Assembly: GCF_002104335.1 (NCBI RefSeq)
Contig: NZ_CP020867.1
Coordinates: 1,059,206 to 1,091,205, forward strand
Direction of reading: 5' to 3'
Length of the DNA stretch: 32,000 bases
Source: Campylobacter cuniculorum DSM 23162 = LMG 24588
GTDB taxonomy: Bacteria > Campylobacterota > Campylobacteria > Campylobacterales > Campylobacteraceae
Shown here: one piece after another, positions 21,349 through 22,702 of the stretch
How the letters are laid out: each line of letters begins with the position of its first letter
Numbering within the stretch: position 1 is the stretch's first letter
The notes under the pieces: generated by a model
What the model was told of the DNA's origin: nothing
The model's input: only the letters and a program-made list of their open reading frames with translations
Database searches by the model: none
Program-made: the position numbers and the translations under genes

Positions 21349-22702
21349 AAAAGTAAAAGAAACAATTTTTGCTTATGATAAAGAAGTGATCGATTGTGAA
21401 GTCTTAAGGGTTAAAAATATTGATTTAATTCATTCTAAAATTTATTTCAAAGGTGTATTACTTACAGGCTCAACCGAACTTCCTAATAATCCTTTTTATT
21501 TTGGAGAATTAGATAAAGATAATATTATAAAACAAGACAGACCCAGTTATTATTTTTCTCCTAAAGATGAAAGCAGTGGTTTAGGAAGACTTAGTATTTT
21601 TTATAAAAATGATGAACTTTGCTTACTTAATTATTCTATCATAGAAAATTCTTTAAATATCAAATTAGAATGCTTAAGTAAGCAAAGCTTAGAATATAAA
21701 GATTTAATTTCAAACACTATAAAAGAACAAAAAACCACACAAGTAGATAAAAAACAAAGTATAGCTAAACTTCATGCCCTTTTAGAAAATCAAAACCTAG
21801 AATGCATCCATGGAGGTAAAGTCATACTTCAATCAAATAAAGGAAAATCTTTTAAAGACAATAACATCCCTATTATGCTAGAAAGTGATTTGCTTAATTC
21901 TAGTATAAGTGCTTGTCCTAATACTATAGCAGGTGTAAGTGTTCCTTGTAGTAAAGTTGCGAATGTAAAAGGAGCCTTATCTCAAAAGAAAGTCAATAAT
22001 GAATATGCTATATTACAAGAACTAATCTCAGCTTGTATCACAGACAAAGGCTTTCCTTTAAAAGTAAGCTTTACTCCTACTCAGTTTAAATTCGATCATA
22101 GTTTTGATCCTAAGGAGGGCTTGGTAAAACAAAGCAAAAACCAAACAGAGTTAAAAGAACCTATAATAAGACTTCATTATAAAAGCGATAGATTTCAAAA
22201 AGATAATTTACCTATCTATAATCTTTTAATCAATAATGAAAGAAAAGAACAAGATAAGGCTTTAAATGAATTAAATATAGATTTAAAAGATTTAAAAGAT
22301 ATAGAGGACATTAATATTCTTAATCAATTCAAGCAAGACTTTAGTAAAGATTATGAATTTAAGGCATTAAACCTTAGCTTGGATACTAATTTAATCAAGC
22401 TTTATTTCATTATCCCCAAAAACATTGCTAAAATTCATAAAAGTGCTTATAAGGAATTTGAAAATAAAGATTTAGGAGCGGGGTATTTTACACAATTACA
22501 TGAGTATGATAAAATCATAAAAAATGCTTTAGAAGATAATAAAAAATTAAACGCATATCATTTTAGTTTTTTAGCCCCTGCTAAGATGAAAAATTTAAAA
22601 CTTCAAATCGCAAAAGGACTCGATGAGATCTTAGAAGATGAAGATAGAAAGCAAGAGCTTTATGTTTGTAAATTTGTGGTGGTCAATGGGATTAAAATAT
22701 GA
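21338..22702 (+). CDS. 454-aa protein with a central four-Cys PAAR-like (DUF4280-like) module
   Basis: Residues ~153-245 (nt 21794..22072) read LECIHGGKVILQSNKG...ISACPNTIAGVSVPCSKV...KKVNNEYAILQELISACITDKGFPLKV. The four Cys (156, 192, 204, 232) are spaced as in DUF4280. The gene overlaps the upstream gene by 11 nt and the downstream gene by 4 nt. Confidence 0.5.
   Translation: MSLEKVKETIFAYDKEVIDCEVLRVKNIDLIHSKIYFKGVLLTGSTELPNNPFYFGELDKDNIIKQDRPSYYFSPKDESSGLGRLSIFYKNDELCLLNYSIIENSLNIKLECLSKQSLEYKDLISNTIKEQKTTQVDKKQSIAKLHALLENQNLECIHGGKVILQSNKGKSFKDNNIPIMLESDLLNSSISACPNTIAGVSVPCSKVANVKGALSQKKVNNEYAILQELISACITDKGFPLKVSFTPTQFKFDHSFDPKEGLVKQSKNQTELKEPIIRLHYKSDRFQKDNLPIYNLLINNERKEQDKALNELNIDLKDLKDIEDINILNQFKQDFSKDYEFKALNLSLDTNLIKLYFIIPKNIAKIHKSAYKEFENKDLGAGYFTQLHEYDKIIKNALEDNKKLNAYHFSFLAPAKMKNLKLQIAKGLDEILEDEDRKQELYVCKFVVVNGIKI

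Follow-up and report, generated by a model that had tools for sequence, protein, structure and literature searches.

The question raised by this locus is what a small cysteine-rich module does in the middle of a 454-amino-acid (aa) protein of Campylobacter cuniculorum DSM 23162. The DNA analysed is a 32,000-nucleotide (nt) stretch of contig NZ_CP020867.1 (the window hereafter), in which the segment 21794-22072 translates to NLECIHGG...GFPLKVSF, that is, residues 153-245 of the protein encoded on the forward strand by the open reading frame (ORF) at 21338..22702. An earlier note on this DNA had read the segment as a four-cysteine module of the DUF4280 family embedded between N- and C-terminal extensions, and the whole protein as a spike adaptor. 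Our analysis indicates that the domain is probably of the PAAR-like spike-tip type, and that the protein, a toxin-less allele of a three-domain carrier, probably represents a 'specialised effector' scaffold of a type VI secretion system (T6SS). The core of this idea has already been published as a prediction, and the observation is real; what is new here is the assignment of the putative ligands, the connection with the CIS_spike_tip family and with tip proteins encoded in injection-system operons, the three-domain model, the partner genes, and the identification of a tagH stub in the neighbourhood.

The middle domain and its stand-alone relatives

The AlphaFold2 model of the full-length protein, obtained with a 54-sequence alignment, reached a mean predicted local distance difference test (pLDDT) score of 89 and consisted of three domains joined by linkers of low confidence. 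These are a beta-rich N-terminal domain with one long helix (residues 1-131, 21338..21730), the PAAR-like middle domain (residues 144-254, 21767..22099), delimited by AlphaFold2 and compared with other proteins through hhalign and Foldseek, and a C-terminal domain of mixed alpha/beta structure (residues 270-450, 22145..22687), all encoded on the forward strand. This arrangement bears out the position of the module between two extensions as first described. When folded alone, the middle domain reached a pLDDT of 94.7 and a predicted template modelling (pTM) score of 0.85. Since it folds separately and the same ~110 residues are found in other architectures, the module is real, discrete and mobile between architectures. 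In the N-terminal domain, residues I18, D19 and C20 were invariant in the alignment of homologues, and Foldseek found no fold match for either flanking domain in PDB or BFVD.

Residue conservation was counted over 339 instances of the domain, with denominators that vary by residue. Within the C-x-H-G-G motif (codons C156-I157-H158, 21803..21811), C156 was present in 329 of 329 instances and H158 in 319 of 331; these would be the first two ligands of a metal site. The putative third ligand, C193 of an I-x-x-C motif (codon 21914..21916), was found in 321 of 322 instances, and the putative fourth, C204 of a P-C motif (codon 21947..21949), in 319 of 320, with the Cys/His/Cys/Cys tetrad kept in more than 96% of the 339 instances. 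On the contrary, C233 was present in 135 of 272 instances, nearly all of them near-identical C. jejuni/coli sequences, and in none of the stand-alone members described below; what follows the tetrad is a conserved T-D-x-G-x-P motif, not a cysteine. Because the four tetrad residues are conserved and C233 is not, the metal site likely consists of C156, H158, C193 and C204, which would meet in space in the folded domain. Three of the cysteines in the layout first proposed, C156, C193 and C204 (the latter in the PC pair), were thus found to be conserved, whereas the late one was not, and the description as a four-cysteine module has to be replaced by one that includes H158. Canonical PAAR domains use three histidines and one cysteine as ligands, and DUF4280 proteins carry four conserved cysteines (PMC5014421). 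The carrier domain differs from the former by its one histidine and three cysteines and from the latter by having a histidine as one of the ligands, and as read from the alignment its putative ligand set is intermediate between the two.

A phmmer search of 1.84 billion representative proteins recovered 140 relatives of the carrier. Residues ~143-250 of the query alone matched stand-alone proteins of 109-120 aa, as well as the N-termini of proteins of 180-440 aa, the stand-alone forms coming from Streptomyces, Micromonospora, Caldilineaceae, Nostoc and metagenomes. Alignment with hhalign of the Campylobacter/Helicobacter domain set against 71 of these stand-alone proteins (~115 aa) gave a probability of 98.6% with an E value of 7e-16. 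The operon context was looked up for two stand-alone members (L007 8328-10345 and L009 8349-10357), and both were located between a gene for a 551-557-aa protein and genes for a gp25-like Sheath_initiator and a Baseplate_J protein. In contractile-injection operons, the position just before the gp25-like and Baseplate_J genes is that of the spike-tip gene. The 551-557-aa protein would be the spike; a sequence search of PDB with the 557-aa protein gave no match. As a side observation, this protein ends in short beta-strand repeats.

The relatives were also scanned against Pfam, in which the gathering cut-offs are 26.3 bits for DUF4280 (PF14107), 27 bits for PAAR_motif (PF05488) and 24.1 bits for CIS_spike_tip (PF19267). 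Among 25 relatives, CIS_spike_tip matched one, DUF4280 four (best E 0.0012, the best overall) and PAAR_motif three (best E 0.0048), and among the 71 stand-alone relatives, CIS_spike_tip matched seven (best E 4.1e-5, 23.9 bits), DUF4280 two and PAAR_motif one. The seven CIS_spike_tip matches had E values of 0.01 or lower and lay just under the cut-off; one of the stand-alone relatives, P0308, bears a precomputed assignment to this family and scored 23.9 against the required 24.1 bits on re-scan. The best relative for DUF4280 scored 17 bits in one scan (E 0.0091), and those for PAAR_motif 17.5 bits at most. These three spike-tip families were the only recurrent ones, the others being single matches at chance level. 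Judged from these profile scores, the closest Pfam family is CIS_spike_tip, not DUF4280. The stand-alone ~115-aa relatives resemble CIS_spike_tip proteins in being encoded in operons with gp25-like and Baseplate_J genes; the carrier domain differs from that family in having no profile match and in forming the middle of a 454-aa protein that belongs to a T6SS-associated module. It was also observed that this ~115-aa branch, present in Actinomycetota, Chloroflexota and cyanobacteria, stands at the spike-tip position, is unannotated and falls just below the CIS_spike_tip cut-off. A whole branch of spike-tip proteins is in this way missed by current Pfam models.

Toxins, T6SS genes and published predictions

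In a scan of one genome per species, the carrier family was found only in Campylobacter and enterohepatic Helicobacter, often with several copies per genome. C. jejuni and C. coli yielded 641 homologues with 83-91% identity, most of them proteins of 620-790 aa with a C-terminal Phage_lysozyme domain starting around residue 470 (residue 473 in the 622-aa P0006, residue 629 in the 766-aa P0095), and some with other C-terminal ends instead of lysozyme. Toxin-less alleles of 451-461 aa, such as the one in the window, which has no fused toxin, are common, and a single cluster at 90% identity contains 1098 sequences. In proteins of ~1100 aa the three-domain unit is located at the C-terminus, behind a Lipase_3 or Mbeg1-like region, and short versions with the PAAR-like domain as their only part of the unit end in TNT, SLT or DUF5675/ART domains. 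Finally, a Helicobacter genome (L025) has a separate gene for a 673-aa Lipase_3 protein immediately upstream of the carrier gene. As far as domain combinations can tell, the carrier family behaves as a PAAR-type toxin carrier.

The association with T6SS genes was found in relatives of the window locus. On plasmid pCJDM67L the order is a 432-aa gene, the carrier, a 1140-aa gene, a 433-aa gene, and then tagH, tssM and hcp, after which come the other T6SS genes, vgrG being located at the opposite end; the carrier of this plasmid is unannotated in the gene table and is 91% identical to the window protein. Several Helicobacter and Campylobacter carrier loci have TssC, TssF, TssK, Hcp or TagH within 10 kb. 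Injection-machine genes thus adjoin the relatives, and in the window their only trace is a tagH remnant.

A PAAR-like domain of ~110-125 residues with conserved Cys and His residues was predicted by Robinson et al. in 2021 (PMC8285248) and 2022 (PMC9676060) in CJ488_0948, and the former work also placed it in CJ488_0990 (PMC8285248). CJ488_0948 adjoins genes for proteins of 1140 and 433 aa, with homologues on pCJDM202 and in the T6SS-negative strain RM1221 (PMC8285248, Table 2). The 2022 study identified 240 such Campylobacter proteins, from T6SS-positive as well as T6SS-negative genomes; some of them bear a lipase at the N-terminus, and others end in TNT or PoNe domains (PMC9676060). The trio around CJ488_0948 is the same as that formed by the 454-aa protein and its 1152- and 428-aa neighbours, and the window protein matches the equivalent slot on the sister plasmid pCJDM67L; its membership in the CJ488_0948 group is inferred from this synteny, not from the sequence of CJ488_0948. 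The published work neither assigned ligands nor modelled the structure, and drew no connection to injection operons; the window copy differs in lying at another chromosomal site from which the adjacent T6SS has been lost. In the literature searched we found no experimental test of the domain, which is also not dealt with in a 2026 preprint on the effectors of C. jejuni. The C. jejuni T6SS is still poorly understood, and we know of no PAAR protein that has been demonstrated experimentally for it. The ligand set, the tip-protein relatives and the partner genes make the published in-silico prediction directly testable.

Altogether, these observations suggest the following mechanism. The domain would form a small cone held together by one metal ion at C156, H158, C193 and C204, and this cone would cap the VgrG beta-helix at its blunt end and leave the cell on the spike; binding of both the metal and VgrG is a prediction. 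The domains on either side of it, which are specific to Campylobacter and enterohepatic Helicobacter, would serve as attachment points for toxins; as the comparison of homologues shows, these are fused N-terminally (lipases), fused C-terminally (lysozyme, in most C. jejuni/coli alleles) or encoded just upstream. The copy in the window carries no fused toxin; on the upstream side its gene is coupled to that of a 438-aa candidate effector, and on the downstream side to the genes of two conserved partners, of 1152 and 428 aa.

Such a domain would share with canonical PAAR proteins (PF05488; VCA0105, c1882 and Pvc10) a small beta cone, one structural metal site and N- or C-terminal toxin extensions, and the solved structures 6p22 and 4jiw are its best structural matches; it differs from them in the lack of P-A-A-R motifs and of a profile match, with template modelling (TM) scores of 0.44-0.53. 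With DUF4280 proteins (PF14107; Francisella IglG and the Pte3-type tips of Bacteroidota) it shares the character of a cysteine-rich PAAR-like module of non-canonical T6SS, in which terminal extensions bind partners (PMC5014421, PMC13402684), and the weak profile matches of its relatives, none of which reaches the cut-off.

The comparison of the domain model with PDB by Foldseek is best read together with its limits. Only four hits had TM scores above 0.4 and probabilities above 0.15: the solved PAAR proteins Pvc10 (6p22_D, TM 0.44) and c1882 (4jiw_D, TM 0.45/0.53, root-mean-square deviation 4.2 A), a 93-residue chain of a phage P1 baseplate entry (9vyi, TM 0.54) and, from a Bacteroides VgrG-cargo complex, a chain of 151 residues (9jg8_B, TM 0.46). 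A cone-like fold is borderline on this evidence, since the similarity to PAAR structures is weak. The fold is consistent with a divergent PAAR-like cone, which is not the same as proof of it.

A number of results weigh against the interpretation as a spike-tip domain. The E values of these Foldseek matches (0.7-2.3) are not significant and their TM scores (0.44-0.54) are borderline, and the full-length model found no match in PDB or BFVD (best E 0.27 and 0.12, respectively). Neither the 454-aa protein nor the excised domain matched any Pfam or NCBIfam family even at E values up to 10, the PAAR tetrapeptide is absent from the translated segment, and no re-scanned relative reached the cut-off of DUF4280, PAAR_motif or CIS_spike_tip. 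Comparison by hhalign with a single E. coli sequence of the c1882 PAAR type gave probabilities of 0.1-2%, a single-sequence template being uninformative, and sequence searches of PDB with the carrier protein, the domain profile and the profile of the stand-alone relatives retrieved nothing. The 551-557-aa operon neighbours showed no similarity to E. coli or C. jejuni VgrG in phmmer. Moreover, the family occurs also in T6SS-negative genomes (PMC9676060), as in the case of CJE1114 in RM1221 (PMC8285248), and a search confined to the window revealed neither vgrG nor any other T6SS core gene apart from the tagH remnant. Taking both sides into account, we consider that for the family as a whole the interpretation as a spike-tip-type carrier is likely to be right. 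Of the spike adaptor envisaged in the earlier note, what stands is a PAAR-like spike-tip domain set between extra domains, in a toxin-carrying family found beside T6SS genes; its attribution to DUF4280 does not.

The island around the carrier gene

The DNA of the window is low in G+C (about 30%). Housekeeping genes occupy it up to position 17321, and from about 17.4 to 32 kb it consists of an AT-rich block in which the genes are all on the forward strand and lack a Pfam or NCBIfam assignment. On chromosome CP063091.1 (GCA_014931255.1, 1.93 Mb), where the window sequence is identical, the boundary of the block is marked by UDG and Glt_symporter genes; a literature search found no paper that mentions CP063091. 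Neither a tRNA gene nor the att site of CJIE3 was found at the island, and its identification as a CJIE3 site was rejected on these grounds.

Directly after a 580-aa gene, the window contains the 3' end of tagH as a remnant of 34 codons on the reverse strand (29487..29588), with 88% identity by tblastn to residues 266-299 of the TagH protein of pCJDM67L; no other part of a T6SS core gene is present in the window. Positions 29400-29573 show 91% nucleotide identity with the junction between the 433-aa gene and tagH on that plasmid, and the T6SS cluster that continues past the tagH junction on plasmids is missing from the window. The junction at which the stub lies is the one found on the plasmid. 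The island is the leftover of a T6SS-flanking region whose core was lost; it is a decayed T6SS-flanking effector region.

Other genes in this part of the island are also duplicated or truncated. An 86-aa ORF (27477..27737, forward strand) is what remains of a second 1152-like gene: it corresponds to the C-terminal end, being 71% identical to the 1152-aa protein over residues 1071-1146 of the latter. It is followed by the 580-aa gene (27737..29479, forward strand), which encodes a paralogue of the 428-aa protein. The two proteins are 51-60% identical at both ends and differ in the middle, and the 580-aa protein has an added lipoprotein-type signal at its N-terminus (MNKLFLATLLIFTLNAC).

With the local T6SS core lost, the window copy would depend on a T6SS from another part of the genome, and would otherwise be idle. 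It may therefore be that in this genome the gene is a functionless leftover, stranded after the loss of both the T6SS and the toxin domain, an explanation that is compatible with a spike-tip carrier role for the family. The tagH remnant and the lack of core genes in the window speak in its favour, as do the surrounding fragments (the 86-aa ORF, and repeated pieces of the genes for the 438-aa and membrane proteins) and the absence of the lysozyme and immunity gene found in the C. coli locus L004. On the other hand, the ORFs for the 438-, 454-, 1152- and 428-aa proteins are intact and tightly coupled, toxin-less alleles of this length are common (the cluster of 1098 sequences mentioned above), and the search for T6SS genes covered the window, out of a chromosome of 1.93 Mb. 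We regard the loss of function in this genome as possible though doubtful. T6SS-less Campylobacter genomes can retain intact carrier modules as remnants, which matters where 'effector' genes serve as markers of T6SS presence.

Partner genes and remaining alternatives

The carrier gene is tightly packed between its neighbours. Its ATG at 21338 precedes the stop codon (21346-21348) of the 438-aa gene (20032..21348, forward strand), which results in an overlap of 11 nt, and an ATGA at 22699-22702 joins the end of the carrier gene to the start of the 1152-aa gene (22699..26157, forward strand). The translational coupling to both neighbours that had been proposed is in agreement with these overlaps. 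The 428-aa gene, the second conserved partner, follows at 26168..27454 on the same strand, and upstream of the 438-aa gene lies a gene for a hydrophobic, probably membrane, protein of 159 aa (19556..20035, forward strand), which at its stop shares 4 nt with the 438-aa gene and is a candidate for immunity. A gene similar to the latter is kept upstream of a 431-aa gene in loci L004 and L005.

The only family match of the 438-aa protein was a weak one to DUF2459 (E 0.029, residues 141-207), around a cysteine motif (...LLENNCVTWV...); the label 'PPPDE-like' given to it earlier was not confirmed. The possibility that this protein was the split-off N-terminal lipase region of the ~1100-aa homologues was also considered and rejected, BLASTP having found nothing. 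Neither the 1152-aa nor the 428-aa protein matched any family in Pfam or NCBIfam or any entry in PDB, and a PDB sequence search with three neighbour proteins gave no match.

The conservation of these neighbours was counted over 16 carrier genes followed by 4 kb or more of sequence and, for the upstream side, 16 with enough sequence upstream. A 1152-like gene followed the carrier in 13 of the 16 loci, and then a 428-like gene in 11, versus a 438-like gene upstream in 4 of 16. These counts indicate that the downstream pair behave as conserved partners, and that the variable slot upstream and the C-terminal end of the carrier behave as exchangeable toxin positions. It is plausible that neighbours act as cargo, the 438-aa protein being the candidate effector. 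The trio formed by the carrier and the 1152- and 428-aa genes is kept together from Campylobacter to enterohepatic Helicobacter, and on pCJDM67L the 433-aa homologue of the 428-aa protein adjoins tagH. An unlikely reading is that the trio constitutes an unrecognised spike-loading unit in which the partners are new accessory or structural parts, not toxin and immunity, or else that it has a function that is kept in genomes without a T6SS.

A further explanation sees in the domain a small beta module, stabilised by metal, that belongs to polymorphic toxins borne on conjugative or integrative elements of the CJIE3 type and exported or used without a T6SS; its likeness to spike tips would then reflect only remote ancestry. 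Members of the family are indeed found in genomes that lack a T6SS, and in the CJIE3 of RM1221, which has none either (PMC8285248, PMC9676060), some related loci adjoin TraG_N, Toprim, PIN or ParE genes, the island in the window has no T6SS core, and the Foldseek matches of the domain are not significant. Against this, the T6SS-less copies look like remnants: the tagH stub marks a deletion here, and RM1221 retains vgrG fragments (PMC8285248). Furthermore, stand-alone relatives occupy the position of tip proteins in injection operons, the module adjoins the T6SS cluster on plasmids and in Helicobacter, and no other export signal is evident. We hold a T6SS-independent module to be improbable.

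Least probable of all, in our judgement very much so, is that the domain is a genuine member of DUF4280 whose metal is bound by four cysteines and which acts exactly like Francisella IglG or the PAAR-like tips of Bacteroidota: the weak DUF4280 matches (4 of 25 and 2 of 71 relatives), the C...C...PC spacing and the Bacteroides VgrG-cargo chain among the Foldseek matches fit with it, but the window protein gave no match to DUF4280, nor to PAAR_motif, at E values up to 10, its relatives all stay below 26.3 bits, the likely fourth ligand is H158 with C233 confined to 135 of 272 instances and no stand-alone member, and CIS_spike_tip matches are both more frequent among the stand-alone relatives and stronger. 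The register is also different, since in the relative P0246 it is the last motif of the DUF4280 profile (positions 86-109) that pairs with C-x-H-G-G, so that the N-terminal motif of the domain maps onto the C-terminal one of the family; reading the start motif (C-x-H-G-G-x-V) as the first DUF4280 motif is thus not what the profile prefers. The spike-tip-type carrier remains our preferred interpretation for the family.

Some minor observations concern the same gene families. In C. jejuni CP189984.1 (L001 1-16988), two tandem modules, each of a carrier, a 1152-like, a 428-like and a 267-aa gene, lie beside PIN, Toprim and ParE genes, and one of the 1152-like copies is split by frameshifts and was not called as a gene. 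In the window, a 196-aa ORF (30675..31265, forward strand) had no match in Pfam but shows 89% nucleotide identity to a portion of a Lipase_3/Mbeg1-like gene on a C. coli chromosome (L004 1745-2310), and probably encodes a lipase effector in truncated form. The window also holds repeated fragments of the 438-aa gene covering its N-terminal ~100 residues (17768-18037, 18601-18918 and 19311-19463, forward strand) and copies of the small hydrophobic protein gene on the same strand (a fragment at 17622-17759, and copies at 18130-18588, 19556-20035 and 31346-31816, the last with 94% identity). Between 17622 and 20035 the two kinds of sequence alternate, and this alternation looks like a series of decayed effector/immunity cassettes.

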